Assembly (NCBI GenBank): GCA_021650915.1
Contig: CP091279.1
Coordinates: 720,001-752,000 of the forward strand
Direction of reading: 5' to 3'
Source of the DNA: Candidatus Brocadia sp.
GTDB taxonomy: Bacteria > Planctomycetota > Brocadiia > Brocadiales > Brocadiaceae
DNA: 32,000 nt
A program made the position numbers and the translations under genes. Below are positions 5,373-20,539 of the stretch, one piece after another (positions within the stretch are counted from its first letter, which is position 1; every line of letters starts with the position of its first letter). The notes below the pieces were generated by a model. That model saw nothing but the letters and a program-made list of their open reading frames with translations. It did no database searches and was not told the origin of the DNA.

Positions 5373-6189
5373 GGTTCTTCTCCCAATTAGTCAATAAGAA
5401 TTGAGAAGAAAATCCTTTAAATCATTGAAAAGAGTGGACATTTGGTGTTTCCTATAGATAGATATATACCGTTATAGAAACTATTTACAGGAGACCAGCA
5501 ATGTCCCCATTAAGTATATTACCATATTTTCCTTTTCAGCGGGTAAGAATTACGAAGCAAACTGTTTTTCCTGATGCTGAGATATCTCAGCTTACTGCCG
5601 TGCCCGATGAACGATTTCGCCCAATATGTCATGCGTGTGGCAGCAAAGCACAGCGCATTTACCGCCATGACAAACGATCTTTGCGGGATCTGAATCCTGG
5701 TTCAGTTCGCGTATGGATACATTGTTCGTATCGTAAGATAGCCTGTGAGCCATGCAATCGAATCGTAGTTGAAGACTTGGGTTTTTTTCAACCCTACAGT
5801 CGTGTTACGCATCGTTTAGCAGCGTATATTCACGAATTGTGTAAAGTGTTAGCCGTAACCGAAGTTGCAAAACATTTTGGAATTAACTGGAAAACCGTAA
5901 AAACCATCGATACGTTTTTTCTGGAACGACAATACGCGCAGACAGATTATCAGAATCTTCGCATACTGGCGGTAGACGAAATCTCTGTTAAGAAGGGACA
6001 GCGCTATTTGACCGTTGTTCTGGACTATCTGAGTGGCCGCGTAGTCTGGGTGGGAAAGGAAAGAACAAAAGAAACCCTGGGAACCTTCTTTGCGGGTATG
6101 ACAGAGGAACAAAGGCAGGCGCTTGAGGCCATTGCCATGGATATGTGGGATCCTTATATTCATGCAGTAAAAAAGCACGTGCCTCATGT
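5373..6189 (+). mobile_element. ISL3-family insertion sequence, 3'-truncated
   Basis: The candidate left end GGTTCTTCTCC resembles ISL3-family termini (GGCTCTTC...). The transposase reading frame loses homology exactly at 6190, where the 65-bp repeat arm begins. Confidence 0.65.
5501..6189 (+). pseudogene. ISL3-family transposase, N-terminal approx. 230 aa only
   Basis: Zinc-finger-like CHACG...CEPCN and the ILAVDEISVKKGQRYLTVV and MDMWDPYIHAVKKHVP blocks are typical of IS204/IS1001/IS1165-type transposases. The remainder of the tracked ORF (to 6370) is unrelated read-through. Confidence 0.8.
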
Positions 6190-6254
6190 TATTAATCGTC
6201 TCATAATAGAACACACATTAAGCTGTCCGTTTAGCGCTTCAATATTGGAGAAGG
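6190..6254. repeat. right arm of the perfect 65-bp inverted repeat; part of a approx. 105-bp palindromic unit (6191-6295)
   Basis: Identical to the reverse complement of 5262-5326. Its outer end attaatcgtctcataat also pairs with aattatgagacccttaat at 6278-6295. Confidence 0.85.
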
Positions 6255-6293
6255 AAAGCATACGACGAATCAATACAATTATGAGACCCTTAA

Positions 6294-8828: not shown

Positions 8829-8843
8829 CTGCAAATTTTATTC

Positions 8844-8872
8844 TTGACAATTATTATCACATATGGCAATAT
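8844..8872 (+). promoter_or_regulatory. sigma70-type promoter candidate for the riboswitch transcript
   Basis: TTGACA (8844-8849), a 17-nt spacer, then CAATAT (8867-8872). Confidence 0.4.
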
Positions 8873-8914
8873 GCCCAGCCAAACGCCGTAATAGCCAGGG
8901 CTACAGAGAAAATA

Positions 8915-9030
8915 TTACGATAAGGGCAAACCCGGAGTGATCCGGGGACGCAAAGTAACAGGGTCTTTTGCAGGGGCGTACTCGTCTGCGTGCACCGCAC
9001 AGACAGATGACATGCGCCCTCTATAATCCC
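8915..9030 (+). promoter_or_regulatory. c-di-GMP-I (GEMM-I) riboswitch aptamer
   Basis: GGCAAACC-CGGA-GUGA-UCCG-GGGACGCAAAG-UAACAGGGUC (8924-8966) matches the two conserved GEMM-I blocks, which flank a hairpin capped by a GNRA tetraloop. A second long hairpin follows (AGGGGCG...CGCCCU). Confidence 0.7.
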
Positions 9031-9038
9031 AAAAAGAC

Positions 9039-9094
9039 AGCCTTACTGCCGAAGATGTTCAAAATGAATATTTTTACAGTAAGGCTTTTTTATT
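9039..9094 (+). terminator. intrinsic terminator / riboswitch expression platform
   Basis: 10-bp stem agccttactg (9039-9048) pairs with cagtaaggct (9077-9086), followed by TTTTTaTTT. The 28-nt loop is long for a simple terminator. Confidence 0.5.
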
Positions 9095-9133
9095 TGCAAA
9101 AATTGAAGGAAGCCGCAGGCTTCAGAGGAAAAT

Positions 9134-9154
9134 GGTGGGCACTGCCCACCCTAC
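9134..9154 (-). repeat. REP-like GTAG-leader hairpin, inverted orientation
   Basis: GGTGGGC act GCCCACC followed by CTAC. On the minus strand this reads GTAG plus hairpin. Confidence 0.5.
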
Positions 9155-9161
9155 CCCTGGC

Positions 9162-9187
9162 TGGTTCAATCGTCCGCGATTGAACCA
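9162..9187. repeat. perfect hairpin (11-bp stem, 4-nt loop) with TGGTTCA arm
   Basis: tggttcaatcg tccg cgattgaacca. Confidence 0.6.
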
Positions 9188-9251
9188 AGATGTTTGGCAA
9201 GATTTCACATTTATTGCACGGGTTCATGCCCAGGCGTGCCATGCGAAACGT

Positions 9252-9278
9252 CTGGTTCAGTCTGCAAGACTGAACCAG
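9252..9278. repeat. perfect hairpin (12-bp stem, 3-nt loop) with CTGGTTCA arm
   Basis: ctggttcagtct gca agactgaaccag. Shares the CTGGTTCA arm start with the hairpin at 9162. Confidence 0.6.
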
Positions 9279-9344
9279 CTTAGAAAATTAGAGTTATAGT
9301 AGACATTCTATGTCAAGCTCTTTTTTTCTTTTAGAAAAAAATGA

Positions 9345-9541
9345 GCCGGGTAGGGTAGGCATCGCCTACCACGTATTTCGAATGCATGCGGGTAATTTAT
9401 ACGGATGTGGAATGAATGAAATGGTTGTGAACGATCTTGGCATGGAACGGATTTTGGTAACGGCGGGTTGTGCTTGCATTACTTCACATTTTGCCGGGTT
9501 TGATCTGGCAGGCGGCGCCATGCCCTACGTAAAAATTGTAT
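9345..9541 (+). repeat. A-type REPIN-like repeat, copy A1
   Basis: gccggGTAGG-GTAGGCatcGCCTAC hairpin, then a approx. 150-nt conserved core, then GGCAGGCggcGCCaTGCC-CTAC and gtaaaaattgta. Confidence 0.85.
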
Positions 9542-9675
9542 TCACAAATTCAAATTCTAACAAAAAGGCACGGGGTCAGGTCTTTATTCTTGCTGTTTGT
9601 GTTAAAAACCTGGCAGATTGGGGTGGGTCGTGGGGTCGCGCCTCGATTTGTGAATATTGCGTTGAAGTGTCTTAA

Positions 9676-9900
9676 TTACAAAAGTTGAAATACTGGCACT
9701 TGAATAGTTTTATATGAGCGATGCCGTTCGATGGCAATTTGGAGTTTGTCAACGGTTTCTGGAGAAAAATATTCTTCATTACAGTTTTCACATACCTCTG
9801 CTGGGACATTTTCCACGGCAACCAATTCCCCATGATACCATTGAGTGTACGTAATATATTTCTGGGTGGTTTTCCCCTGACATACTGAACATGTATTCAT
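9676..9900 (-). CDS. YgiT-type zinc-finger protein (MqsA-like antitoxin N-domain type)
   Basis: 74 aa with CxxC...CxxC (CSVCQG ... VPAEVCENCNEEYF). Lies immediately downstream of a DUF4258-type gene, a recurrent TA pairing. Confidence 0.75.
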   Translation of the reverse strand: MNTCSVCQGKTTQKYITYTQWYHGELVAVENVPAEVCENCNEEYFSPETVDKLQIAIERHRSYKTIQVPVFQLL

Positions 9901-9903
9901 AAT

Positions 9904-10206
9904 CTATTTTCTCCTTATTCTATTATCAATCCATTGCTCCGGGTCTGGTTCATATACAGTTACAATGCTTATAATTGGCAAAAGGGCTATTTGAACGTGT
10001 AGTGCTCTTCCCATAGCTGTTTTTCCATATACAAGGCAACTCGGTCCGTATTTATCGGAGGGGTAATTTTCAATTATTTCACCGGTTAAAATAGCTTGTT
10101 CAATCTCTTCGCCTGTTATATGACGGTTTATTCTTTGTTCCGTACCGTGTTTTGTATAACGAAATTTATTTTCAACAAGAGCTTTACGGATGATAGCAAT
10201 ATTCAC
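9904..10206 (-). CDS. DUF4258-family toxin candidate (start reassigned to GTG)
   Basis: The conserved part starts near NIAIIRKALVENKFRYTKHGTEQ. The tracked ATG at 10356 would add 50 aa that overlap an intron fragment. The GTG at 10204-10206 sits just downstream of a strong promoter. Confidence 0.65.
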   Translation of the reverse strand: MNIAIIRKALVENKFRYTKHGTEQRINRHITGEEIEQAILTGEIIENYPSDKYGPSCLVYGKTAMGRALHVQIALLPIISIVTVYEPDPEQWIDNRIRRK

Positions 10207-10213
10207 AAGATTA

Positions 10214-10242
10214 ATATAACATGGCGTTTTTCTCTGTGTCAA
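10214..10242 (-). promoter_or_regulatory. sigma70-type promoter of the DUF4258/YgiT operon
   Basis: Minus strand: TTGACA (10242-10237), a 17-nt spacer, then TTATAT (10219-10214). The start codon lies approx. 8 nt downstream, so the mRNA may be leaderless. Confidence 0.5.
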
Positions 10243-10291
10243 TGGAGAAAATAAAAGAGAGGAAGTCAGAGGGTCACCCTTAAATGTTAGC

Positions 10292-10520
10292 GTGCCCAGG
10301 AAATGGCACTGCTTTCTAGGGGGTGAAAGTCCCGACATGGTAAAAGCAGGAGCCATGTAGCTTGGATGGCAGGGGGTGATGGAAACATTACCTTCTGAAG
10401 CCCATCGACAAAGTCGGCGTAAGGCCGGTGTGCGAATATCCGGGTCGTAACTTACGTGAACGTAGATGTAGCCTCGTGAAAGTCAAGAACCACTGGCCGG
10501 GCTGGGGCTTGGTGTCACCC
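10292..10520 (+). mobile_element. group II intron 5' fragment (domain I part only)
   Basis: GUGCCCAGGAAAUGGCAC...GGGGGUGAAAGUCCC parallels the 5' end of intron 2 (GCGCCAAGGAAAGUUAGGCAC...GGGGUGAAAGUCCC). No RT ORF or domain V follows. Confidence 0.5.
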
Positions 10521-10555
10521 ATTAGAAGACTTTTGTCAATCGAAAAAGATTTTCT

Positions 10556-10673
10556 GTAGTTGAGTGGGGTGGATTAAGCGACAGCGAATCCACCAATCCG
10601 TCTTTTGTTGGGATATTATTGGTGGATTCGGCGCTAAAAGGCAAGCGCCTTAATCCACCCTACAAAAATTGTA
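10556..10673 (+). repeat. B-type REPIN-like repeat, copy B1
   Basis: GTAG leader, then GGTGGATTaagcgacagcgAATCCACC, a spacer, then GGTGGATTcggcgctaaaaggcaagcgccttAATCCACC-CTAC and aaaaattgta. Confidence 0.85.
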
Positions 10674-10864
10674 GCTCTATAGGTATCGCCTACCACGCAT
10701 TTCAAATGCATGCGGGAAATTTGTGCGGATGTGGAATGAATGAAATGGTTGTGAACGATCTTGACATGGAACGGATTTTGGTAATGGCGGGTTGCGCTTG
10801 CATTACCTCACATGTTACCGGGTTTGATCTGGCAGGCGGCGCCATGCCCTACGTAAAAATTGTA
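10671..10864 (+). repeat. A-type repeat, copy A2 (left hairpin degenerate)
   Basis: Roughly 90 percent identical to A1 across the core and right end (by eye). Confidence 0.85.
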
Positions 10865-10881
10865 TGGATACACAACTTGTA

Positions 10882-11016
10882 GCCGGGTAGGGTAGATTGC
10901 AACGGTACGAATGATTGGTGTTGGGTTTCACTCACGTTTTACCCAACCTACACAATTCGGTATTAAAGCCGGGTAAGATTGGGTTGAATGAAATGAAACC
11001 CAACGGATTTTTCAAT
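10882..11016 (+). repeat. C-type REPIN-like repeats, cluster C1
   Basis: GTTGGGTttcactcacgttttACCCAAC-CTAC, then gccggGTAAGaTTGGGTTgaatgaaatgaAACCCAAC. Confidence 0.8.
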
Positions 11017-11067
11017 GTTTATGAAGAGTTGGTGTTGGATTTTCATATGCCTTACCTGAAGTACCGA

Positions 11068-11490
11068 CTACAAAACGATAATTCCCTCTTTCTCAGCGGC
11101 TTGATTCAATTTTTCATCATTACTTGAAAAATACACCCGTGGCCCGATTTTGTGCTTTAGATTCATAGCTGATGCCAGGTGGATGGAATCAAAACCTCTG
11201 AGGAGGTGCTTTTCAGCAATATCACCTGCTGACCTTATCAATCCGTCGGTAACCTCAATGAGAAAATAGCTTTCCCAATCTCTATTGAAATCCTCTACAA
11301 TTTTTCGGAGTACTTTAGCAGAAAAACCGTCGTCTCTTTGTTTCCTTGCAAAGGCAGACCTTGCTTCTGCATATGCTACTTTTGAAGTTGATAGGACCGT
11401 TGCCTTGTGGACTATTTCTTGTATCGTATCAGAACCGATCTCATCTATATACAATTTAACCAGGTCGCTCGTATCGATGTAAACGATCAT
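11068..11490 (-). CDS. vapC: PIN-domain toxin (VapC-type)
   Basis: 140 aa with MIVYIDTSDLVKLY (acidic D near the N-terminus), GFDSIHLA and SSNDEKL acidic positions. Overlaps the upstream antitoxin gene by 4 nt. Confidence 0.8.
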   Translation of the reverse strand: MIVYIDTSDLVKLYIDEIGSDTIQEIVHKATVLSTSKVAYAEARSAFARKQRDDGFSAKVLRKIVEDFNRDWESYFLIEVTDGLIRSAGDIAEKHLLRGFDSIHLASAMNLKHKIGPRVYFSSNDEKLNQAAEKEGIIVL

Positions 11491-11762
11491 CTTCTATCTT
11501 CTATGACTATCTCAGAAACGGTTTTTCCCTTAACTTTAACGGAATGTATACTTCCCATTGGTTTGCCACCTTTCCATACAGCAAAACCCTCTTTAACCAG
11601 GGAAAGCAGTTTGGAATCCTCACCTACTCTCTCTACGGGAGTAATGGTGGCAATTATTTTCTCCCTTTCGGTAATTGCGATCTTTTCACCTTTCTTGATT
11701 TCCCGAAGATAATGACTCAATCTATTTTTTAATTCTTTTATGCCAACAGTAATCATGGACAC
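11487..11762 (-). CDS. Phd/YefM-type antitoxin
   Basis: 91 aa with N-terminal ITVGIKELKNRLSHYLREIKKGEKIAIT, typical of prevent-host-death antitoxins. Coupled to vapC. Confidence 0.75.
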   Translation of the reverse strand: MSMITVGIKELKNRLSHYLREIKKGEKIAITEREKIIATITPVERVGEDSKLLSLVKEGFAVWKGGKPMGSIHSVKVKGKTVSEIVIEDRR

Positions 11763-11792
11763 ATTGTAAAGTTAAGTAGCTACCTTTGTCAA
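11763..11792 (-). promoter_or_regulatory. promoter with embedded palindromic operator for the phd-vapC operon
   Basis: Minus strand: TTGACA (11792-11787), an 18-nt spacer, then TACAAT (11768-11763). The spacer contains the GTAGCTAC palindrome (11776-11783). The ATG follows almost immediately. Confidence 0.45.
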
Positions 11793-11854
11793 TAATAATT
11801 TAAAGCACAAAAGTAAGAATATTTTATCGGGGGGAGGCTGGGGGTCACACCTTG

Positions 11855-13808
11855 TCGCGCCAAGGAAAGTTAGGCACATTTTGCGGGGTGAAAGTCCCTG
11901 TCGGGTAAGGGATAGCCACCCACCCGTATCGAGTCTTGCGTCCAATGCGGAGCGTGTAAACGCGAACAAGAAGATTGGATGAGGCGTAGACAGAGAATTC
12001 TGTAGGCCGCAGGGGTGGTCACGCACCCTGAAGTGCTGGTACAGCTTCGAGATGACCTAACAAGCGGATGCCGAGGGGTTCAAGGTTTACCGAAGGCAAT
12101 ACAAGAACATCCGAAATGGCGAGGATGCGAAGATCCGCCGGAGTCTTCAGGCCGCGGCATGCAGAAACAGATGTGTCCAAGAACTTGGGAAGCCCCAATA
12201 GCTCCTGGAAGCAGAGCGGAACAGGCAGGCGGTGGAGTACGGTAAAAGGGAAAAAGCCGCTAGAAGCGATTGGGGTGTCTTATCAGGCATAGTACTCAGA
12301 GGTGGGGAAAGCCCGCTACAGGGGGAAGGACTTGACGGAAGTACGTAGCCCGCAAAGGAAACTTGAGCCGGACAATGCAGGGTCGGAAGAACTCAAGCAA
12401 ACCTCACTGCGGGGAATAGCAAACAAGGCGAAAGTCAACAAGCAACATCGGTTTCAGAATCTCAATAGGTGTCTGAATAAGTCACTGTTACGGGAGAGCT
12501 GGCGGGAGCTGAATAAGGATGCAGCCAGTGGCGTGGATAACGTTACAGCAGCAGAGTACGCAGAGCGCCTGGACAGCAACCTCCAAACATTGGCAGAGAG
12601 ACTGAAATCGAAGCGATACCGCGCCAAACTGGTGCGGCGCTGTTACATTCCTAAGGAAAACGGTAAAGAAAGACCCTTGGGCATACCAGCACTGGAAGAC
12701 AAGCTGGTGCAACTGGCCTGCACGAAATTGTTAACAGCAATATACGAGCAGGATTTTCTGGATTGTAGTCATGGGTACCGACCCAAACGCAGCGCGAAGG
12801 ATGCAGCAATAGTCCTGCGCAGGGAGTTACAAGGAGGGAGGTATGGCTACATCGTCGAGGCGGACATAAAAGGATTCTTCGATAATCTGGATCATGACTG
12901 GTTGCTGAAAATGCTGAGTCTTCGTATAGATGATCGGGCATTTCTGCACCTTATCAGCAAGTGGCTGAAAGCAGGAGTGCTTGATACCGATGGAACGGTG
13001 CTTCATCCGGAAAGTGGCTCTCCGCAAGGAGGAATTATCTCCCCGATCCTGGCGAATGTGTATCTGCACTACGCCCTGGATTTGTGGTTTCAGAAGGTGG
13101 TAAAAGCCCATTGTCGAGGTAAAGCGGAATTATGCCGCTATGCCGACGACTTTATCTGTGTGTTTCGTGATAAGCGAGATGCGGAAAGGTTTTATCAGGT
13201 GCTGCCAAAGCGGGTTGGAAAATTCTGCCTTCAGTTAGAGCAGAAGAAGACGCAGATTATGAGATTTAGTCGCTCTGATCCGCGCATGAAACAAGGGTTC
13301 AGCTTCCTGGGGTTTGAGTTTTACTGGAAGAAAGATCGTTGGGGGACACCACGAGTTATGTGCCGCACGTCCCGTAAGAAATTACAAGGGGCGTGTAGGA
13401 GGGTCAAGGAATGGATCAGGCAAAATCGGCATCTGCCAGGAAGTGAATTTTTCAAAGGATTAAACAGTCGGCTGAGAGGACACTACAATTATTATGGGAT
13501 AAAGTATAACTATCAATCGCTCAATCGCTTTTATAAATGGGCTATAGCATGTACCTTCAAATGGCTGAACAGGAGAGGCGGAAAGCGGAACAGTTATACA
13601 AAGGAGACGCTAGAGCGAATCCTGCGTCTCATAGGTATTGCAAGACCTCGAATTACGGAAGCCATTCGTTGAAAAATGTTTGTTTGTTGATGACGTCATG
13701 TACCGTGGAAGCGAGTACGACCGAGGAACCGGATGCGGGAAAACTGCACGTCCGGGACTGTGCGGGGGGTGCTGGGTAACTTACATTCCTACCGCGGAAT
13801 TTGTGATT
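11855..13808 (+). mobile_element. group II intron 2 (boundaries within about 15 nt)
   Basis: 5' GCGCCAAGGAAAG...GGGGUGAAAGUCCC, then the RT ORF. Domain V lies at approx. 13727-13758 (CCGGAUGCGGGAAAACUGCACGUCCGG). A domain-VI-like helix has a bulged A at 13791. Confidence 0.75.
12302..13672 (+). CDS. group II intron reverse transcriptase/maturase, no endonuclease domain
   Basis: 456 aa with RPLGIPALEDKLVQ, HGYRPKRSAKDA, PQGGIISPILANV, YADDFICVF and an X-domain-like RGHYNYYG. Start is a GTG in the track; the true start is uncertain. Confidence 0.9.
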   Translation: MGKARYRGKDLTEVRSPQRKLEPDNAGSEELKQTSLRGIANKAKVNKQHRFQNLNRCLNKSLLRESWRELNKDAASGVDNVTAAEYAERLDSNLQTLAERLKSKRYRAKLVRRCYIPKENGKERPLGIPALEDKLVQLACTKLLTAIYEQDFLDCSHGYRPKRSAKDAAIVLRRELQGGRYGYIVEADIKGFFDNLDHDWLLKMLSLRIDDRAFLHLISKWLKAGVLDTDGTVLHPESGSPQGGIISPILANVYLHYALDLWFQKVVKAHCRGKAELCRYADDFICVFRDKRDAERFYQVLPKRVGKFCLQLEQKKTQIMRFSRSDPRMKQGFSFLGFEFYWKKDRWGTPRVMCRTSRKKLQGACRRVKEWIRQNRHLPGSEFFKGLNSRLRGHYNYYGIKYNYQSLNRFYKWAIACTFKWLNRRGGKRNSYTKETLERILRLIGIARPRITEAIR

Positions 13809-13813
13809 ATTAA

Positions 13814-14005
13814 GCCGGGTAGCCGGGTAGGGTAGGCATCGCCTACCACGCATTTCGAATGCATGCGGGTAATTTATACGGATGTGGAACGGTTCAAATG
13901 AATGGGAACGACTCTGACATTGAACGGTTTCTTGCAATGGCGGGTTGTGCTTGCATTACTTCACATTTTGCCGGGTTTGATCTGGCAGGCGGTGCCATGC
14001 CCTAC
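13814..14005 (+). repeat. A-type repeat, copy A3 (divergent 48-nt internal segment)
   Basis: Same ends as A1. The right end runs directly into a RAYT-like start codon at 14037. Confidence 0.85.
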
Positions 14006-14036
14006 GTAAGATTTGTATGGATGGAAATATACAAAC

Positions 14037-14119
14037 ATGCCTAACTATCGGAGGGTGCGGATACCGGGGATAACCTATTTCTTTACGGTTGTTACCTACA
14101 AATTGAGCGCTCACTCAGC
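14037..14119 (+). pseudogene. 5' relic of a REP-associated tyrosine transposase (RAYT / IS200-like Y1 transposase) gene
   Basis: Encodes MPNYRRVRIPGITYFFTVVTYK, the characteristic N-terminus of RAYT/TnpA(REP) proteins. Homology stops after approx. 22 codons. Confidence 0.6.
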
Positions 14120-14132
14120 CGTGGAATTCTGG

Positions 14133-16119
14133 GTAGAGTAGGGAACTGGCTATCTATAGTTTAGGTTGGCCTATCTGTTTCTGCCCCTTTCGTCTGGCAG
14201 TGCCTCAGTAGCCTCACCATGCTATTTCGCCAGTCCTCCCTCATCAAACCGTGCTTGCGGTTTTCCCGCACACGGCTTTCCGATGCCCTTCACCATAAGG
14301 CATGCGCTATCTCCATACCGCTGTGGTCGGCACTTTGTAAAGACCATATCTCTCATATAACATGCTGTTTGTGTATCGCTTAAGCCCTGTCTTCCTGTCT
14401 CTGATTTTATGACGTCTGTACAGGTGTATCCGAAGCCGGAATTGAGCGTGTTCTCTTACTTGCTTGAGGACTCTGCTGCAATTGCGATAATGGAAGTATC
14501 CTGTCCATCCTATCAGTGCCGTATTCACCTCTTTGACTATCGCTTCAAACGGTAGAGGGGACCTGTTCCTGCTGGTAAGTGCCGTAATGTGGTCTTTTAT
14601 CTTCTTGAGAGATTTCTTCGACGGCTGAACATGGGGATAACTCTTCCCCGTGCGCCAATTCTTCCTCTTTTGAAGTTCAAACCCAAGAAAGGTAAATCCC
14701 TCTTTCATGGCGTCTACTACACGGCTCTTTGCCTCGTTTAACGTCAGTCCCAGTTTGTCCAGCACCCGCTTTGTTATCGCCATTGGCTGTTCAGTTCCTT
14801 GCCTGCACAGTACGACAAAGTCATCGGCAAAGCGTACTAATCTGGCTCCGAGTTTCTTCTCCAGTCGATGTCTCTCCCATATCCTGTCCAGGAGGTGCAG
14901 GTAGAGATTGGCTAGTAACGGTGAGATTACTCCTCCTTGAGGTGTGCCTTTCCGGTTCCCTTTACCTCCGCCGATGTTCCTTTGTTTTCCGTCTCTGCCT
15001 TTTTCTATGACCGGAGCCTTGAGCCACGTCTTTATCAGGTGCAGTATCTCACCGTCACTGATGCGCTCTGCTACCACAGCCATAAGCTTGGCATGGGGGA
15101 TGGTGTCAAAGTATTTGGACAGGTCGGCGTCTATGATTTCGGTATATCCCTTGTTGAGGGTATATGCTACGTCATCTACGGCATCGTGGGCAGATTTCTT
15201 CGGCCTGAACCCGTATGAACATTCGCAGAAATCGGCTTCAAAAATGGGTTCTATGACCAGTTTTACGGCCATCTGCGCTACCCTGTCACGGATGGTGGGA
15301 ATGCCTAACGGGCGTTCCGTTCCGTCCGTCTTGGGTATCATTACTCGTTTTACAGGGCTTGCTTGATAGGTCTTGCTCCTGAGTGCTTCTTGCAGTTCCG
15401 CCAGAAAGGCGGATACCCCTTCTCTTTCCTCGATGGCCTCGAAGGTTACGCCGTCTATCCCGGCGCTCCCTTTGTTGGCACGGACAAGGGTGTAAGCATG
15501 ACTGAGGATGTCTGCCCGGAATACCTTGTCATAGAGGGCGTAGAAGCGGTAGGTTGGTTCTTGCTTGGCCTTTCGGTATAGCTTCCTCTGTAGTATCCTG
15601 ATCTTTTCCGGGGTTGTTAGCATTTCTGCAATCTCCCTTTTCCTCTACTCTTCGGTTGCATGAACAAAGCAGGGTTCCTTTCCTCGAACAGGGTTTTGTT
15701 GTCCCTTGTCCTCAAACGGTATCATGAACCCCTCCGACTCCCTATACAGCCCGCTGTGATTTCGTTTCCTTATACAGAGCGGTTTATGCCCCTCAAACAT
15801 TACTGCATAGGGTCTCCAGCACTGGTCTGTTTATCTTCCACTGCATGCCGCCCCTGCTACCCCGGAAGATATTACAGACTCCTTCCGTTGCCTGAGTCTG
15901 CAATCTTCGGCCTTCCCCACGTGTCCACGGGGTCGGCATCTTCAATTTGTATTGACGAGGCTACTTGTAGGTTCGCTTGCGCTGCGGCCTGCGGTTTTGC
16001 CAATTGGGAACTTACGACCCCTGATTGCTCAGACGCCGCTCCCTTGAACTACCGGGGTGAACGGATAATTCCCCGGACGGGACTTTAACCCGTAAGAATA
16101 AACAAATGTTACTGCGTAC
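14133..16119 (-). mobile_element. group II intron 3, boundaries defined by an intact paralogous target site
   Basis: A 1987-bp insertion relative to the uninterrupted paralog at 16748-16793. The minus strand starts GUACGCAG and ends CUCUAC. Canonical domain V lies at 14246-14278 (AAGCCGUGUGCGGGAAAACCGCAAGCACGGUUU). Confidence 0.85.
14307..15623 (-). CDS. group II intron reverse transcriptase/maturase, no endonuclease domain
   Basis: 438 aa with RPLGIPTIRDRVAQMA, YGFRPKKSAHDA, PQGGVISPLLANLYLH, FADDFVVLC and GWTGYFHYRN. Confidence 0.9.
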   Translation of the reverse strand: MLTTPEKIRILQRKLYRKAKQEPTYRFYALYDKVFRADILSHAYTLVRANKGSAGIDGVTFEAIEEREGVSAFLAELQEALRSKTYQASPVKRVMIPKTDGTERPLGIPTIRDRVAQMAVKLVIEPIFEADFCECSYGFRPKKSAHDAVDDVAYTLNKGYTEIIDADLSKYFDTIPHAKLMAVVAERISDGEILHLIKTWLKAPVIEKGRDGKQRNIGGGKGNRKGTPQGGVISPLLANLYLHLLDRIWERHRLEKKLGARLVRFADDFVVLCRQGTEQPMAITKRVLDKLGLTLNEAKSRVVDAMKEGFTFLGFELQKRKNWRTGKSYPHVQPSKKSLKKIKDHITALTSRNRSPLPFEAIVKEVNTALIGWTGYFHYRNCSRVLKQVREHAQFRLRIHLYRRHKIRDRKTGLKRYTNSMLYERYGLYKVPTTAVWR

Positions 16120-16165
16120 GGACAGCATACTTAATTATTGACATTATTTTTAACGTAACACTTTA

Positions 16166-16210
16166 GCCGGGTAGGTTGGGTTGAATGAAATGAAACCCAA
16201 CGAATTTTTC
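16166..16210 (+). repeat. C-type repeat, single hairpin copy C2
   Basis: gccggGTAGGTTGGGTTgaatgaaatgaAACCCAACgaatttttc. Confidence 0.8.
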
Positions 16211-16221
16211 TTTATGCCAAG

Positions 16222-16494
16222 CTAACGGTAAATATCCTTACGATGGCCTATTCGTATAATGTGAACTACTTTTTGAGGAGAATGTACTTCGTAGATGATG
16301 CGGTAATCCCCACTTCGTAAGGAATAGCAACCTTGTTTTTTACCTTTGAGATGTTTACCTGAATAGGGGTTGAATGAGAGGGAGTCAATAAGCTTAACGA
16401 TGCGTTTGGTAACGGTAGGATTTGCATACTGAAGTTTTTTTATATCACGGCTTGCTTTTGGGTCAACCTTAATTTCAAATTTGCTTGAGCTCAC
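16222..16494 (-). CDS. RelE/ParE-family toxin
   Basis: 90 aa with LRSGDYRIIYEV...VVHIIRIGHRKDIY, the classic RelE/ParE C-terminal signature. Confidence 0.85.
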   Translation of the reverse strand: MSSSKFEIKVDPKASRDIKKLQYANPTVTKRIVKLIDSLSFNPYSGKHLKGKKQGCYSLRSGDYRIIYEVHSPQKVVHIIRIGHRKDIYR

Positions 16495-16684
16495 GCTTCA
16501 AGGTTTCCCATGATATGGACTTGCCTTTACGGAAACGTTCCCTGGCCTGAGTAATTTCACGGTCCAATTTTGGAGTTGGTGTATAGCCAGCTTCTTCAAG
16601 CAGGGTAATATACTCTTCTACAGGAATTAAAACCATTGGTTTGTCAATGGTAAGGGGGTGCATTAAAATTGCTTTTTGAGCCAT
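16475..16684 (-). CDS. antitoxin partner of the RelE/ParE toxin
   Basis: 69 aa. Overlaps the toxin start by 20 nt. Small acidic/basic protein in the antitoxin position; the family was not recognised with certainty. Confidence 0.6.
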   Translation of the reverse strand: MAQKAILMHPLTIDKPMVLIPVEEYITLLEEAGYTPTPKLDREITQARERFRKGKSISWETLKRELKQI

Positions 16685-16747
16685 GGTTTACCTCACAATG
16701 GGATGATATAATTTAACAAACAAATATATAGACTGTCAAGGTAAAAT

Positions 16748-16793
16748 GCGGAATTCCGGGGATACCATACTTAATTATCGACATTATTTTTAG
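16748..16793 (+). repeat. D-type repeat: intact (intron-less) paralog of the intron 3 insertion site
   Basis: gcggaattccggggataccatacttaattatcgacattattttta matches the joined flanks of intron 3 (14119-14132 plus 16120-16152) at about 41 of 47 positions. Confidence 0.8.
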
Positions 16794-16794
16794 A

Positions 16795-16909
16795 GTCTGG
16801 TAGGGTGGATTAAGCGACAGCGAATCCATCAATCCATCTTTTGTTGGGATATTATTGGTGGATTCGGCGCTAAAAGGCAAGCGCCTTAATCCACCCTACA
16901 AAAATTGTA
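16795..16909 (+). repeat. B-type repeat, copy B2
   Basis: gtctgGTAGGGTGGATT...AATCCACCCTACaaaaattgta. Near-identical to B1 and B4. Confidence 0.85.
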
Positions 16910-16911
16910 AC

Positions 16912-17052
16912 CCGATAGGCATCGCCTACCACGTATTTCGAATGCATATTGTGAGCGATCTTGACATGGAACGGATTTTGGTGATGACGGGTTGTGCTTG
17001 CATTACTTTACATTTTGCCGGGTTTGATCTGGCAGGCGGTGCCTTGCTCTAC
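16912..17052 (+). repeat. A-type repeat, copy A4 (36-nt internal deletion, degenerate right end)
   Basis: Aligns to A7 except for loss of gcgggaaatttgtgcggatgcggaatgaatgaaatg. The right end reads gccttgctCTAC. Confidence 0.8.
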
Positions 17053-17103
17053 AAAAATATTTCATTGAGATATCAGTTTATTATATTCAGCATGGGAACC
17101 AAT

Positions 17104-17319
17104 TCAAGACCATACAACAGTATTGCCTTTGTCTAGTCCTGGCGCTCGATATTTTCGGCTTACTCGCACAGACCACAATTTGCGAATCCTTTTGAATTGC
17201 AAGGACGGATGTGCCGAATCTGTTTTGAGAAGTTGGAAATTCTTATCTGCAAGTACTTGAACTTCCTTCGGAAGTTGCTGGTAATAACGCCAAAATTCAG
17301 GAGTCGTGTAATGATTCAA
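17104..17319 (-). CDS. RelE/ParE-superfamily toxin with an in-frame TGA (homology continues to 17062)
   Basis: FWRYYQQLPKEVQVLADKNFQLLKTDSAHPSLQFKRIRKLWSVRV is typical of this toxin type. After VVWS-TGA the frame continues IGSHAEYNKLISQ-stop, which is the expected conserved C-terminus. Confidence 0.65.
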   Translation of the reverse strand: MNHYTTPEFWRYYQQLPKEVQVLADKNFQLLKTDSAHPSLQFKRIRKLWSVRVSRKYRAPGLDKGNTVVWS

Positions 17320-17513
17320 AGTGGCTTACACCGTCCGGATTGAAAGCTTTCCTCCGCCTCTTTGATTATTTTGTCCAGCCGCCCAGCTTCTATATCATTT
17401 TCGATTTGCTTGTCCCACGTTTGTGCTTGATATGCCTCAAACCAGGCAGTAAACTGAGACAATTCCTCAGATGTAAGTCGTGTAATGGCTAATTCAATTT
17501 CTTTAATACTCAT
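17316..17513 (-). CDS. antitoxin (addiction-module component) partnered with the preceding toxin
   Basis: 65 aa: MSIKEIELAITRLTSEELSQFTAWFEAYQAQTWDKQIENDIEAGRLDKI. This is a pattern often seen upstream of this toxin type. 4-nt overlap with the toxin start. Confidence 0.7.
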   Translation of the reverse strand: MSIKEIELAITRLTSEELSQFTAWFEAYQAQTWDKQIENDIEAGRLDKIIKEAEESFQSGRCKPL

Positions 17514-17674
17514 ATATTTATTTTTCTGTGGAAAAGTTCATATATTATAACAAGGTATTACTCTGTTATTAATACAGAAACACTGCTCATAATCAAGTGC
17601 AAAAGAGAAAGGGCAAGAAAGGACAAGGGGTCAAAGATAAATCTGCTTCAACTCTTCTGATAATCTGAGAAATC

Positions 17675-17768
17675 CAGGCAGGTTGGGTTGGATGAAACGA
17701 AACCCAACGAATTTTTCAACGTTACGCATGATTGGTGTTGGGTTTCACTCACGTTTTACCCAACCTAC
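17675..17768 (+). repeat. C-type REPIN (two inverted hairpins), copy C3
   Basis: cagGTTGGGTTggatgaaacgaAACCCAAC, a spacer, then GTTGGGTttcactcacgttttACCCAAC-CTAC. Confidence 0.8.
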
Positions 17769-17778
17769 ATAATTTACA

Positions 17779-17880
17779 GCCGTGTAGCTGGGTAGGGTAG
17801 GCATCGTCCTACCACACATTTTGGATGCACGTGGATAATTTTTGCGGGATAATGTTTCTGACGTTGAACTGATTTTATAT
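17779..17880 (+). repeat. A-type repeat, copy A5 (degenerate, left half only)
   Basis: gccgtGTAGctggGTAGGGTAGGCatcgtCCTACC, followed by a decayed core. Confidence 0.6.
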
Positions 17881-18075
17881 TGGCATTGACAGGGAGAAAA
17901 AAATGATTGCTATCCCTATTTCAAATGAATAATTTGATGATCATGGAGATGATACCGGCAATAACAAAGCCTAGTGTGCAGACATATTAATTACAAATTA
18001 TATATTGTGGACAATTTTAGCTATATCGCGCTGCAAAACAGCATTTATATGTTTCGTTATTAATATGTCTCTACA

Positions 18076-18246
18076 CTAGCATCCACTTAACGAGATTTAT
18101 CTCGATTTTTAATACTTTAATTTCTGCTTTAATGTCTGTCAAATCGGACTCGCTATGCGTAAAGTGTTTATCGTAATCGGCAATAGCTGAGGCCGCTGCC
18201 TTTGCTTTTTCGTCCGAAGTGCCGGCTTCTTTGAGTGCTTCGTAAA
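18076..18246 (-). pseudogene. 5'-truncated fragment of a small coiled-coil protein gene
   Basis: The frame reads ...LYEALKEAGTSDEKAKAAASAIADYDKHFTHSESDLTDIKAEIKVLKIEINLVKWMLV-stop. It has no start and is cut at its 5' end by the partial B-type repeat. Confidence 0.3.
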
Positions 18247-18287
18247 GTCTGGTAGAGGGGATTAAGCGACAGCGAATCCGTCAATTC
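18247..18287 (+). repeat. B-type repeat, partial copy B3
   Basis: gtctgGTAGaGGGGATTaagcgacagcgAATCCgtcaattc. Confidence 0.7.
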
Positions 18288-18379
18288 ACTTGTCCATGCC
18301 GGCCGCCCGCAAAAGGTGCAAGAAGCCGTCTATTGCCGATGTGCCCAAATGCCGCTGTCATGCAAATTTCCCTGACAGA

Positions 18380-18649
18380 TTATTGTTCCTTGCGGAATGT
18401 TAATGGGTATTTTTCCGGATTTTCAAGTGAGTCGGTTTCGAGGTCGATGTCGAGGTCAGGCCAGTAGAGATGGTAGCCGTTAAGTAATTCAACATTGCAG
18501 ATATCTTTTACTTTGGCATCCTCAAACCAAGGGTACTCTTTATATGATAAGAAATATTCCTTTTTGTTTGCATAGAGCCACATACCGTGTGTAGAAATAT
18601 TCAAAACCTCAGCTTTTGAAATAGTTTTCCCACGCTTCTGTAATTTCAT
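18380..18649 (-). CDS. DUF2442-family protein (putative antitoxin-like partner)
   Basis: ISKAEVLNISTHGMWLYANKKEYFLSYKEYPWFEDAKVKDICNVELLNGYHLYWPDLDIDL is the DUF2442 pattern. Start placed at the internal ATG at 18649. Confidence 0.65.
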   Translation of the reverse strand: MKLQKRGKTISKAEVLNISTHGMWLYANKKEYFLSYKEYPWFEDAKVKDICNVELLNGYHLYWPDLDIDLETDSLENPEKYPLTFRKEQ

Positions 18650-18848
18650 CGGCCTTTTCCTTGATAAATTTTTGTATTTCATTTAACTGTTTTGGTGATA
18701 AGCCATAATTGTTTGCCAGTGCAACTATTGGTTCTAGCCAAAACTTTGCCCCACCGTTAGGATATTTCACATGAATATTCACTCTGGCTTCTTCTTTTGA
18801 AAAGAAATAAAGCCAATAGCTTTTGTATTTGAATATTGCAGGACTCAT
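18609..18848 (-). CDS. DUF4160-family protein (putative toxin-like partner)
   Basis: From the ATG at 18848: MSPAIFKYKSYWLYFFSKEEARVNIHVKYPNGGAKFWLEPI... DUF4160/DUF2442 gene pairs are a recurrent two-gene module. Confidence 0.65.
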   Translation of the reverse strand: MSPAIFKYKSYWLYFFSKEEARVNIHVKYPNGGAKFWLEPIVALANNYGLSPKQLNEIQKFIKEKADEITEAWENYFKS

Positions 18849-18941
18849 CTTCTCTCCTTGTTCATCTTTGCTCATTATTTTATCACAATTTAAAAGAATA
18901 GGCAAAGGGTCAATGGTTTTCAGATGTCAAAGGGGCCACAG

Positions 18942-19122
18942 GTAGCCGGGTAGGCACACCTACCACGTATTTCGAATGCATGCGGGAAATTTATGCGGAT
19001 GCGGAATGAATGAAATGATTGTGAGCGATCTTGACATGGAACGGATTTTGGCAATGGCGGGTTGTGCTTGCATTACTTCACATTTTGCCTGGTTTGATCT
19101 GGCAGACGGTGTCATGCCCTAC
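18942..19122 (+). repeat. A-type repeat, copy A6
   Basis: Left hairpin variant GGTAGGCacaCCTACC. Core and right end conserved. Runs into a RAYT-like start codon at 19154. Confidence 0.85.
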
Positions 19123-19153
19123 GTAAGATTTGTATGGATGGAAATGTACAAAC

Positions 19154-19230
19154 ATGCCTAACTATCGGAGGGTACGGATACCGGGGATAACCTATTTCTT
19201 TACGGTTGTTACTTACAAATTGAGCACTCA
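19154..19230 (+). pseudogene. second 5' relic of a RAYT gene
   Basis: MPNYRRVRIPGITYFFTVVTYK again. Homology with the 14037 copy ends at the same point (ctcactcag). Confidence 0.6.
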
Positions 19231-19298
19231 CTCAGAAAGCACGGTGAATCATCAAGGCGAAGTCGCTGTATCTTTGCAGTCGCTGCGGTAAGTTGTTT

Positions 19299-19529
19299 TT
19301 AAATCGTTGCAGTTTCAACTTTCTCAATAGGGAGGTTCTCGATAATTATGTTTGAGAGATCCTTCCGAGACAGTTTTTTGGTTGCATCGAGGATTTCAAC
19401 GCCAATAATGTGCCCTTTTTCATCAATATCAATGGTAACTCCGTCTTCGATGTCAATATTGTCGAATACACGCGTCTCTTTTAGCTGGATATACAAGGCA
19501 TCTGCTTCTTTATCGTATTCTATCCTCAC
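19299..19529 (-). CDS. DUF2283-family protein (antitoxin-like)
   Basis: 76 aa: MRIEYDKEADALYIQLKE...GHIIGVEILDA is the DUF2283 signature. Confidence 0.75.
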   Translation of the reverse strand: MRIEYDKEADALYIQLKETRVFDNIDIEDGVTIDIDEKGHIIGVEILDATKKLSRKDLSNIIIENLPIEKVETATI

Positions 19530-19535
19530 GTTACA

Positions 19536-19772
19536 TTACCTCCATCCTTTCTGTTTTTTCACTGCCGTTATAACCAGTATTGTATCTGTTTCTTCTCTGT
19601 ATGTCACTCGGAGATATTTTTCGAACGTCTTTTTCCATGCATTCAACCTGTTTTCTATCGATGGCTCAACAAAATCAGGTTTCTGTATCGCAAGTTCTAT
19701 CTCAGATTCTGTAATTTCATGCCAACGCATCCTGTTTTTTGCATGGCGCGTATATTGAATACGTTTAGACAT
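19536..19772 (-). CDS. DUF4258-family toxin candidate
   Basis: From the internal ATG at 19772: MSKRIQYTRHAKNRMRWHEITESEIELAI... DUF4258/DUF2283 is a recurrent pairing. Confidence 0.7.
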   Translation of the reverse strand: MSKRIQYTRHAKNRMRWHEITESEIELAIQKPDFVEPSIENRLNAWKKTFEKYLRVTYREETDTILVITAVKKQKGWR

Positions 19773-19855
19773 GTTCTGTATGCTATTGCATAAAAAAAAT
19801 ATTGTCAAGATAAAATGTAATAAAACAATGCAACATGTCAATGCGGCACCTTAAA

Positions 19856-20050
19856 GCCGGGTAGGGTAGGCATCGCCTACCACGTATTTCGAATACATGC
19901 GGGAAATTTGTGCGGATGCGGAATGAATGAAATGATTGTGAGCGATCTTGACATGGAACGGATTTTGGTAATGGCGGGTTGCGCTTGCATTACTTCACAT
20001 TTTGCCGGATTTGATCCGACAGGCGGCGCCATGCCCTACGTAAAAATTGC
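19856..20050 (+). repeat. A-type repeat, copy A7
   Basis: Full-length copy. The ATG of the apparent internal frame is mutated to ATA. Confidence 0.85.
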
Positions 20051-20062
20051 GTGAATACACAA

Positions 20063-20176
20063 GTCTGGTAGGGTGGATTAAGCGACAGCGAATCCCCCAA
20101 TCCATCTTTTGTTGGGATATTATTGGTGGATTCGGCGCTAAAAGGCAAGCGCCTTAATCCACCCTACAAAAATTGT
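20063..20176 (+). repeat. B-type repeat, copy B4
   Basis: Near-identical to B2. Confidence 0.85.
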
Positions 20177-20247
20177 AACCCGATAGGCATCGCCTACCAC
20201 GTATTTCAAATGCATGCGGGTAATTTGTGCGGATGCGGAATGAATGA
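20177..20247 (+). repeat. A-type repeat, copy A8 (left third only)
   Basis: Homology ends after ggaatgaatgaa. Confidence 0.75.
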
Positions 20248-20341
20248 AGATGATTTATTCTGTTAATTTGCAACCATCTTTACCTGCTTCGTTATCCATA
20301 GCGCGGCACAGCCGCAACCAAATTTCCTTTATGAAAGCGGG

Positions 20342-20436
20342 GAGATTGCTTCGGAAAAGGCCCCTCGCAATGACAGCGACCATGCACTTTGATGGCACAC
20401 GGCACGTTGTCATTGCGAGTGAAGCGAAGCAATCTT
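20342..20436. repeat. palindromic element of the gattgcttcg...cgcaatgac / gtcattgcg...cgaagcaatc type
   Basis: Arms at 20342-20374 and 20409-20436 are inverted copies. Same architecture as 26566-26655. Confidence 0.75.
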
Positions 20437-20539
20437 TCACTCATAAAAAACGGTACCTCCTGAAAGAGGTTTGTGAAAAAACTTACAAAAAAAAGAAGTT
20501 TTTATACAGTAATACTATAGCAAGGGATGAACGACCTGA

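Follow-up and report, generated by a model that had tools for sequence, protein, structure and literature searches.

A toxin-antitoxin island in Candidatus Brocadia, littered with REP-type repeats and probably reshuffled at them

Closest described systems

Sedentary chromosomal integrons and CALINs of the Vibrio superintegron type are built of small co-oriented modules with similar structured repeats between them. Their toxin-antitoxin (TA) cassettes have their own promoters, and the number and order of modules vary from strain to strain. The pdif (XerC/D) modules of Acinetobacter plasmids, often TA pairs, are discrete units that occur in varied contexts and have short recombination sites at their borders. 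In REP sequences a GTAG tetranucleotide stands 5' of an imperfect palindrome, and inverted doublets are formed (PMC3333891). Some E. coli strains have hicAB TA genes in place of the tnpA-REP locus, and IS200/IS605 elements have a strand bias linked to the template of the lagging strand (PMC3333891). A REP is present in ccdO157, a variable TA locus (PMC3184786).

The stretch analysed here (the window) is 32,000 nt long and covers positions 720,001-752,000 of contig CP091279.1 (assembly GCA_021650915.1, Candidatus Brocadia sp.). It probably holds a hypervariable TA island of a B. fulgida-like chromosome, littered with REPs and shuffled by recombination. Like the sedentary integrons and CALINs, the locus has co-oriented modules with their own promoters, structured repeats, and a number and order that vary by strain; unlike them, it has yielded no IntI, attC architecture or GTTRRRY crossover site, its repeats are of REP type, and exchange looks driven by homology. 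With the pdif modules it shares discrete TA modules in different contexts, but no dif-like 28-bp sites were found in the repeats, which are far longer, and the setting is chromosomal. As in IS200/IS605 elements and the non-autonomous elements derived from them (PATEs, MITE-like), a segment has subterminal hairpins at its two ends, all on one strand, and the transposase family is Y1 HUH. Here, however, the modules neither contain nor adjoin a transposase, the cargo consists of TA operons, and neither a defined left-end/right-end pair nor a target tetranucleotide was found. The REP/BIME/REPIN sequences of E. coli and Pseudomonas, with their RAYT (TnpA-REP) transposases, have the same GTAG plus palindrome and inverted doublets, and in Brocadia relatives these REPs lie on both sides of a Y1 HUH RAYT gene. 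The differences are that RAYT here is a 27-codon stump, that the copies are clustered and co-oriented in TA arrays and not seen dispersed, that one family (A) has a conserved, unstructured, non-coding linker of about 150 nt, and that copy number is apparently low in public data.

Toxin-antitoxin operons

Six type II TA operons, all on the minus strand, occupy 9.6-19.8 kb of the window. Families were assigned with Pfam/NCBIfam profiles (E-values in brackets), and coordinates and start codons were rechecked. TA1 (9676..10206) consists of a DUF4258 toxin (9904-10206; 2e-18) and a YgiT/MqsA-like antitoxin (9676-9900; TIGR03831, 1.2e-13), preceded by a promoter-like TTGACA-18-TATATT (10242-10213). 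TA2 (11068..11756) combines a VapC/PIN toxin (11068-11490; 1e-8) with a Phd antitoxin (11487-11756; 2e-6, and TIGR01552, 1.6e-4), and its promoter-like site at 11792-11763 has 11/12 matches. In TA3 (16222..16684; promoter-like site 16739-16710) a ParE toxin (16222-16494; 1e-15) accompanies a 69-aa antitoxin candidate (16475-16684), and in TA4 (17062..17513) a weakly matching ParE-like toxin (17062-17319; 4.8e-3) accompanies a 65-aa candidate (17316-17513); neither candidate matched a Pfam/NCBIfam family. TA5 (18380..18848) is formed by DUF4160 (18609-18848; 7.5e-14) and DUF2442 (18380-18649; 1.4e-15), and TA6 (19299..19772) by DUF4258 (19536-19772; 4.6e-7) and DUF2283 (19299-19529; 2.4e-17), with promoter-like sites at 19841-19814 and 19808-19780. 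The operons appear to be autonomous, a sequence scan having found a strong promoter-like site for every one.

Repeat families

Fifteen repeat copies (eight A, four B and three C), located by self-BLAST of the window and then alignment, lie between the operons. All are on the plus strand and within the array; self-BLAST found none outside 9.1-20.3 kb. The first-pass annotation had described six co-oriented minus-strand operons alternating with repeats in these numbers and this orientation, and had assigned the repeats REP/REPIN architecture; each of these points is borne out. Read from the sequence, each family begins with GTAG plus a hairpin and ends with a hairpin plus CTAC. The repeats are thus REP/BIME-type doublets of three families, the kind made by RAYT (Y1 HUH) transposases. 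A leader common to the families, YGGGTAGG, occurs seven times in the window (1.05 expected; seven was reached in 0/100 shuffles), always on the plus strand and in the array. Folding z-scores are -7.0 for the B doublet and -2.7 for C/C'.

A1 (9344-9541) is a full REP doublet with its linker. A2 (10671-10869) is fused to B1 (10551-10670; together 10551..10869), A3 (13813-14022) and A6 (18942-19139) are each followed by a RAYT relic (13813..14118 and 18942..19235 in all), and A7 lies at 19855-20056. A4 (16907-17061) has an internal deletion and forms, with a D motif (16748-16792) and B2 (16787-16906), the composite 16748..17061. It was also claimed that a repeat comes within 10 nt of a stop codon, and this holds for the full-length ParE-like frame of TA4, which stops at 17062 beside the CTAC of A4 (17049-17052); in the window that gene has a premature TGA at 17104-17106. 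Only the 5' 70 nt of A5 (17778-17847) and the 5' 72 nt of A8 (20175-20255) are present. B4 lies at 20059-20175, and a partial B3 (18243-18288) interrupts a minus-strand gene remnant (18075-18245; whole span 18075..18288). The C hairpins are C1' (10897-10957) and C1 (10965-11013), spanning 10897..11013 3' of VapC; C2 (16165-16210), 3' of ParE and with a D' motif (16120-16152) spanning 16120..16210; and C3 and C3' (17670-17774), which reach 17670..17847 with the A5 fragment. A diverged C-like hairpin has been found at the place equivalent to C2, 3' of ParE, in Brocadia sp. WS118 (L021).

On its left the array is bounded by an orphaned c-di-GMP-I riboswitch-like element (8916..9054, plus strand; Rfam RF03167, scoring 58 bits where the gathering threshold is 59). 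Beyond it are the F hairpin repeats (9134..9290, plus strand), read from the sequence as GGTGGGCACTGCCCACC-CTAC followed by two GGTTCA-stem hairpins. In L058 (L numbers label the compared loci, mostly other Brocadia assemblies) the F repeats form three tandem copies (13666-14168), and a 3103-aa adhesin-like gene has an RF03167-type element upstream of it; that gene is missing beside the riboswitch-like element of this window. The right border, adjoining cusA, is A7 plus B4 plus the A8 5' fragment (19855..20255, plus strand).

The copies are not all independent. The B/A junction is identical in three of them (B1/A2, 16906/16907 and 20175), B2 with the A4 5' end is 98% identical to B4 with the A8 5' end over 154 nt, and the A-plus-relic units are cut at one base; the shared junction and the common truncation base favour block copying, not transposition.

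For a REP, the A family has an unusually narrow distribution, with 2 matches among 185,579 species genomes and a further 13 protein clusters out of 5.8 billion. Nearly all A copies whose context was examined lie in TA arrays, which is weak evidence of confinement because MAG assemblies lose repeats. In other genomes B-family REPs lie between ordinary housekeeping genes. Within the sampled Brocadia loci 86/90 REP copies are at most 700 bp from a TA gene (such sequence makes up 27%) and each locus has a single repeat orientation, figures that are descriptive only, since TA genes or repeats served to pick out these loci in the first place.

RAYT relics and relatives

The two RAYT gene relics noticed in the first pass are N-termini of 27 codons, relic 1 after A3 (14037-14118) and relic 2 after A6 (19154-19235), both on the plus strand and matching NF047646 positions 1-27 (E = 6.6e-4). 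Truncation is at one and the same base in every window copy and in 20/20 other loci holding the stump; copying must therefore have followed the death of the gene. Neither the window nor any of the roughly 15 array-bearing loci sampled yielded an intact RAYT. Intact RAYT (194 bits) is present in L042, with inverted B REPs on both sides, and likewise in L082 (a Brocadiaceae MAG). The only close longer homologue of the relic, L081, is 95% identical to it over the first 22 residues and is preceded by an A-type hairpin; it has an in-frame stop. In this array the hairpin repeats appear to be leftovers of a now-dead REP-type transposase.

Variation between strains

Presence or absence of repeat-bounded TA units between strains had been set beforehand as a check, and such differences were found among Brocadia assemblies. 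Beside cusA the number of modules is one, four or six. In the one-module allele (L054/L069, L066) window position 16947 is joined to 20062 and three modules are gone; the junction runs through the 154-nt B+A5' unit, 98% identical between its two sites. Four modules are found in L012, L011 and L013. The six-module chain of the window is backed piecewise by independent assemblies: L066 and L070 cross the site of intron 2, L004 connects A3 to intron 1, and L003/L006 connect intron 1 to VapC.

The same modules also occupy another hotspot, located 3' of a giant adhesin gene, in arrays that differ among L001, L071, L072 and L026; exchange involves both hotspots, 3' of cusA and 3' of the riboswitch-controlled adhesin gene. 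Downstream of Phd/VapC four different neighbours occur, and the switch is always at its C repeat. The C1'/C1 hairpins are a breakpoint in L001, L003-L005 and L008-L010, and a hybrid C' joins VapC to TA4 in L003, L005 and L008. Both resolvable recombinant junctions fall within shared repeat sequence and are the expected products of homologous (RecA-type) recombination between direct repeats. Most mapped strain differences begin or end at a repeat; exceptions are the presence or absence of intron 2, the outermost limits of the arrays in L011 and L012, and internal deletions within ParE (L021) and TA4 (L026). From these comparisons the repeats appear to be breakpoints for deletion, duplication and inter-hotspot exchange of modules, not bystanders.

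Some junctions do not fit a simple exchange between homologous sequences. In L001 a DUF4258 gene is joined, in its middle, to the outer edge of the C REP (..CTACCAGGCT); an unrelated gene in L010 takes its final codons and its stop from the C REP; and in L026 a truncated ParE directly adjoins an A 5' end. Such edge-precise joints would be expected if a nuclease acted at the feet of REPs. Strains that are only 92% identical in the riboswitch region next to the array share array segments at 99% identity.

Origin of the arrangement

The gain, loss and reshuffling of TA operons at repeats among related strains is most simply explained by ordinary recombination rather than a new integron-like machine. 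A HUH-transposase system of cassette accretion had been proposed in the first pass: a hairpin-bounded TA operon would behave as an IS200/IS605-type element with a passenger, excised by RAYT in trans as ssDNA and pasted beside another REP, so that arrays grow. Such a system is unlikely and the proposal unsupported: the RAYT is a 27-codon stump copied after the gene had died, and the resolvable junctions lie inside shared repeats. It would account for co-oriented hairpins on the same strand on both sides of every module, the edge-precise joints to truncated or unrelated genes, the switching of Phd/VapC neighbours at the C REP, the C-type hairpin kept 3' of ParE in another species, the near confinement of the A family to TA arrays, the contrast of 99% with 92% identity, and the PIN TA operon that adjoins the RAYT closest to the relic. 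It fits poorly with the lack of intact RAYT in the window and the array-bearing loci, the in-frame stop in L081, the single common junction of the B+A composites, and B REPs elsewhere beside housekeeping rather than TA genes; no conserved target motif and no empty-/filled-site pair for a whole REP-TA-REP unit were found.

The trivial alternative, a permissive region, came closer to the truth, though it is incomplete, the repeats being rearrangement breakpoints. In its strict form, with REPs, introns and TA genes piling up independently and repeats having no role in rearrangement, it is doubtful: the abundance of other mobile DNA (listed below) and the ordinary dispersed intergenic B REPs of other genomes suit it, but repeats mark the start or the end of most mapped differences, two junctions are hybrids that arose inside a repeat, and 15/15 window copies are in the 35% of the window that holds the array. 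An integron cassette array (CALIN) or Xer/pdif-type array, with a tyrosine recombinase elsewhere and attC- or dif-like sites in the repeats, is very improbable. The gene/site alternation and cassette-level polymorphism are formally alike, and the C stems GTTGGGT / ACCCAAC fit GTTRRRY / RYYYAAC, but the order of these boxes is not that of attC and every module has a promoter-like site. No phage-integrase family match (Pfam) was obtained among window ORFs of at least 100 aa outside the array, a heuristic scan of the window for R''/L''...L'/R' sites gave 0 (1.2 in shuffles), and a dif-like scan gave 4 matches against 1.5 expected, none within a repeat. With neither an integrase nor an attC-like site in the window, and none of the dif-like kind in the repeats, such an array is largely refuted, in agreement with the first-pass view that the locus is not an integron despite the formal parallel.

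Under recombination at the repeats, the co-oriented copies would now serve as portable homology. By recombining them, the host's homologous recombination could delete modules, yield tandem duplications or circles, and re-integrate or exchange modules. Direct repeats never give inversions when they recombine, and composites are copied as blocks; both may keep the copies co-oriented. TA addiction would hinder purging, and the region may therefore have become a sink in which REPs, introns and fragments of IS elements collect.

Group II introns and other mobile DNA

The first-pass annotation omitted the group II introns, two complete and one fragment, which make up about 4.3 kb of the 11-kb array. 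The fragment is on the plus strand at 10317-10455 (RF02003, 107 bits). Intron 1 (11842..13803, plus strand, ends approximate; RF02005 at 11891-12153, RF00029 at 13724-13798) contains an RT/maturase ORF with RVT_1 and GIIM (12302-13672), and its 3' end was placed by comparison with L003. Intron 2 (14125..16119, minus strand, 3' end approximate) has its RT/maturase ORF at 14307-15623 and is absent from the alleles in L012, L066 and L070. Other mobile DNA is plentiful in the region, with three group II RT genes, ISL3 and IS66/DruA fragments, and IS110 in L011.

Repeat Architecture

The alternation of toxin-antitoxin (TA) operons and repeats at 9.1-20.3 kb of the window is real and beyond chance. 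Self-BLAST of the window returned eight A, four B and three C/C' copies, all in plus orientation and none outside the array, reproducing the counts and strand of the first-pass annotation. Read from the sequence, each family has GTAG and a hairpin at its start and a hairpin and CTAC at its end, the REP/iREP doublet layout described for the BIMEs of E. coli (PMC3333891). Foot and stem are GTAG-GGTAGGC..GCCTACC in A, GTAG-GGTGGATT..AATCCACC in B and GTAG-GTTGGGTT..AACCCAAC in C. The families also have a leader in common, YGGGTAGG, found seven times against 1.05 expected, in all cases (7/7) on the plus strand and (7/7) within the array. The inverted doublet of B has a folding energy of -29 kcal/mol (z = -6.96), and that of C/C' folds moderately (z = -2.72). 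In A only the inverted ends pair; the fold of the whole element has z = 0.30, which rules out A as a structured RNA or DNA. Coding sequence is ruled out for its linker of about 150 nt, where variable columns are distributed 10/13/13 by codon position and give no coding signal. Rfam matches in the window at E ≤ 1 were limited to parts of group II introns and a c-di-GMP-I riboswitch, with no family over A, B or C. GTAG-footed imperfect palindromes in inverted doublets place all three families, as far as sequence features go, among REP/RAYT elements, and the REP/REPIN architecture claimed for them earlier is borne out by the GTAG/CTAC feet, the doublets and the leader excess. GC skew, used to infer replication direction and explain the repeat orientation, was uninformative at this scale.

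RAYT (REP-associated tyrosine transposase) genes have been found both as relics and in relatives. The 27 codons that follow two of the A copies (14037-14118 and 19154-19235) match the start of NF047646, the RAYT family, with E = 6.6e-4, which upholds the two gene relics noticed at first reading. The relic is cut at the identical base in the window and in 20/20 other loci holding it. As a protein query it gave two short matches only, through which comparison locus L081 was found. The RAYT there is near-intact, with 95% identity to the relic across the first 22 residues and one in-frame TGA; the A-type hairpin GTAGGGTAGGCACCGCCTACC precedes it and a PIN TA operon adjoins. An intact RAYT (194 bits) lies between inverted B-type REPs in metagenome contig L042, and another occurs with B-type REPs in the same arrangement in L082, a Brocadiaceae MAG. 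These three RAYT genes with matching REPs support the identification of the repeats as REP/RAYT.

Toxin-Antitoxin Modules and Other Array Content

Pfam and NCBIfam agree with the earlier description of six co-oriented, two-gene TA modules on the minus strand. In four of the six pairs both partners belong to a known family (DUF4258/YgiT, Phd/VapC, DUF4160/DUF2442 and DUF4258/DUF2283); the other two combine a ParE toxin (90 aa) or a ParE-like toxin (85 aa at full length) with a small partner lacking a family match. By family content all six would belong to type II toxin-antitoxin systems, the DUF pairs as predicted modules. A strong promoter-like site lies directly upstream of every operon in the window. 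The repeat A4 was said to abut a stop codon within 10 nt (17052/17062). This holds for the intact 85-aa ParE-like gene of the Brocadia loci L011 and L012, whose stop at 17062 is 10 nt from the CTAC of A4, but in the window the toxin ends early, at a premature stop (TGG>TGA, 17104-17106) that removes the final 14 residues.

TA modules and repeats are only part of the array. The first-pass annotation described both correctly but missed three stretches of group II intron, two of them complete and encoding an RT/maturase and the third a fragment, which together fill about 4.3 of the 11 kb. Intron 2 (14125-16119) is inserted in a D motif of about 45 nt (D', 16120-16152, adjoins it), an uninterrupted copy of which is present at 16748-16792; intron-less alleles of the site occur in L012, L066 and L070. 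The terminator of a glycosyltransferase operon in L012 has a T-tract that coincides with part of the D motif. An unassigned gene on the minus strand survives as a C-terminal remnant of 59 codons (18075-18245), truncated exactly at the start of a B REP, itself partial, at 18243-18288.

Distribution of the Repeats

In a set of 185,579 species-representative genomes, only two contigs carried the A pattern, although A and B counts from public genomes are likely biased low by assembly, since MAGs lose repeats. ORFs called within A, two of which are spuriously annotated in the window (L3J18_03380 and L3J18_03435), form 13 clusters among 5.8 billion proteins. Brocadia predominates among the named members, a few of which bear the label Anaerolineales, and almost every member with context examined lies in a TA array. 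The B core matched 34 metagenome stretches, five of them Brocadia arrays and the other 29 diverged copies (~80%). The latter are mostly single, with ordinary genes as neighbours (glyQ, mnmE, glycogen phosphorylase) and no TA family among the top matches beside them. Neither the A nor the B pattern matched any IMG/VR viral contig. In the sampled Brocadia loci, 86 of 90 REP copies have a TA gene no more than 700 bp away, whereas such positions make up 27% of the sequence. The figure is descriptive only, the loci having been fetched through TA genes or repeats and overlapping one another. Within each of these loci the REPs have a single orientation.

Variation among Strains

Strain contigs were obtained by exact-protein look-ups, which returned many from Brocadia. 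Next to cusA, the window has six modules, L011 has four with intron 2 and then an IS110, L012 has four followed by the glycosyltransferase operon, and L066 and L054/L069 have one. Shared portions of these arrays are 99.4-99.9% identical. In the one-module allele, window position 16947 is joined to 20062 via a 154-nt B+A5' unit that is 98% identical between the two sites; a junction inside this unit is the product expected from recombination between direct repeats. Presence or absence of single repeat-bounded units between strains, which the earlier reading had asked to be checked, is seen at cusA, and arrays beside an adhesin-like gene vary as well. Mis-assembly of the window across its repeated introns is unlikely given piecewise support by independent contigs. 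Window positions 16063-20356 are 100% identical to contig LAQJ01000223.1 of Candidatus Brocadia fulgida (L024), which marks the window as DNA of a B. fulgida-like anammox planctomycete.

Downstream of the identical Phd/VapC module, one of four different neighbours is found, and the switch point is in every case its C repeat. In the window, L002 and L007 it is followed by A2, B1 and the DUF4258/YgiT module; in L001, L004 and L009 by a truncated DUF4258/DUF2283; and in L003, L005 and L008, through a hybrid C', by the ParE-like module. In L010 an unrelated gene follows, its final codons supplied by the REP. L003 also has a HigB/HigA pair (1-608) beside intron 1 and Phd/VapC, an extra member of the module pool. 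Brocadia sp. WS118 (L021), a different species, has a degraded ParE module between housekeeping genes; the module is flanked left and right by A-type repeats, and at its 3' end is a C-like hairpin that has diverged.

A second hotspot is located 3' of an adhesin-like gene (3042-3103 aa), which is preceded by a c-di-GMP-I riboswitch and hairpin repeats termed F. The array there contains DUF2283, C and VapC/Phd in L001; YgiT/DUF4258 and then DUF5647/DUF7718 in L071; and DUF2283/DUF4258, YgiT/DUF4258 and then DUF5647/DUF7718 in L072, on the same contig as L058. In L026 debris predominates, and seven or more A copies remain along with 3' stumps of a ParE and a ParE-like gene. The DUF7718/DUF5647 pair of L071 (924-1456) is TA-like and a further member of the module pool. 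In L058 the riboswitch (14242-14353) has three tandem F repeats and lies upstream of a 3103-aa adhesin-like gene. Its counterpart in the window (8916-9054, plus strand) is a riboswitch-like element with 58 bits against a gathering score of 59; behind it come a terminator and the array. The adhesin gene is absent from the window and L002, where riboswitch and F repeats directly abut A1. Deletion of the gene in the window accounts for the orphan riboswitch, and the abutment makes the left half of the window array one of the second-hotspot type. L002 2603-2751 is 92% identical to the riboswitch region of the window (8831-8980), compared with 99.1% over array positions 9031-11611; this drop suggests that array segments may be exchanged between diverged lineages.

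Origin of the Arrays

On the best-supported reading, this is a TA island strewn with REP doublets, which a RAYT that later decayed would have left, and reshuffled by homologous recombination that would act between the co-oriented repeats. This reading rests on hybrid junctions located within repeats, on block copying (an identical B|A junction three times, the relic cut at one base in all copies) and on the lack of an intact RAYT in every sampled array. The same evidence weighs against the integron-like interpretation offered earlier, by which a RAYT-type HUH enzyme acting in trans would cut the GTAG/CTAC feet and move TA operons as single-strand cassettes between REP-marked hotspots. In its favour are the few edge-precise joints, in L001, L010 and L026, where a REP foot is fused to a gene interior. 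Such joints count against a purely homologous mechanism and would be explained by a nuclease at REP feet; old REP insertions, then recombination, would explain them too. With junctions and a dead relic favouring homologous recombination, HUH-driven cassette movement is unproven and seems quite improbable. If true, it would be integron-like gene capture built on a Y1 transposase, not a tyrosine recombinase. Passive co-accumulation of REPs and TA loci is an unlikely account of an array in which REP doublets coincide with most of the breakpoints for gain, loss and exchange of individual modules, among near-identical strains and between two chromosomal sites.

Integron or Xer exchange is very hard to credit. 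Cassette-level presence and absence among strains resembles an integron or CALIN, but the array differs from integrons and pdif at their defining sites, attC and the 28-bp XerC-spacer-XerD. Pfam detected no phage-integrase family or IntI among ORFs of at least 100 aa outside the array in the window, and our own heuristic scan of both strands for the attC architecture R''(RYYYAAC)-L''...L'-R'(GTTRRRY) of 50-160 nt gave no site, where shuffled sequences averaged 1.2. Integron or CALIN identity is therefore rejected, in agreement with the first reading, which had found no integron recombinase. The dif-like pattern GCATAA-N6-TTATGTTAA, with up to three mismatches, had four matches against 1.5 expected and none inside repeats; a Xer/pdif array is rejected, as such sites are not enriched and none is in the repeats bounding modules. 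An IS200/IS605-type element with a passenger would have a Y1 transposase, same-strand subterminal hairpins at its left and right ends and insertion 3' of a fixed tetra- or pentanucleotide. The co-oriented hairpins are present here, and the transposase only as a relic. Neither a fixed target motif nor an empty/filled pair for a whole REP-TA-REP unit was found among the loci compared.

REPs have been described beside TA genes at other variable loci. For example, some E. coli strains have hicAB in place of tnpA-REP and its BIMEs (PMC3333891), and the ccdO157 TA locus contains a REP (PMC3184786). REP/RAYT repeats and chromosomal TA islands are already known; the concentration of REP-type doublets inside TA arrays is unusual. 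Literature on Brocadia integrons, REPIN/RAYT with TA systems and anammox TA islands yielded no earlier account of TA arrays separated by REPs, in anammox bacteria or otherwise. The coincidence of doublets and breakpoints assigns a concrete part in genome plasticity to REPs, which would serve as portable homology or possibly as nuclease targets, in an organism important in wastewater nitrogen removal. The array is also a test bed for whether RAYTs can mobilise more than their own REPs.

Other Mobile DNA in the Window

A 223-nt inverted repeat pair (20297-20519 and 26473-26703, 81% identical) surrounds cusA, a 23S-rRNA-IVP gene and cusB. It contains the motif GTCATTGCGAG..GAAGCGAAGCAATC, and more copies occur at array borders in L001, L040 and L054. 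To the left of the array, 78-nt inverted repeats (7573-7650 and 8751-8828, 92% identical) are placed around an ORF (7597-8679) matching DruA (2.8e-36) and the C-terminus of the IS66 transposase; 7573-8828 appears to be either an IS-like unit or a chimeric gene. An ISL3 transposase fragment at 5262-6370 is associated with an inverted repeat of 65 nt without mismatch (5262-5326 and 6190-6254), and 3406-4572 holds the third RT/maturase gene of a group II intron.
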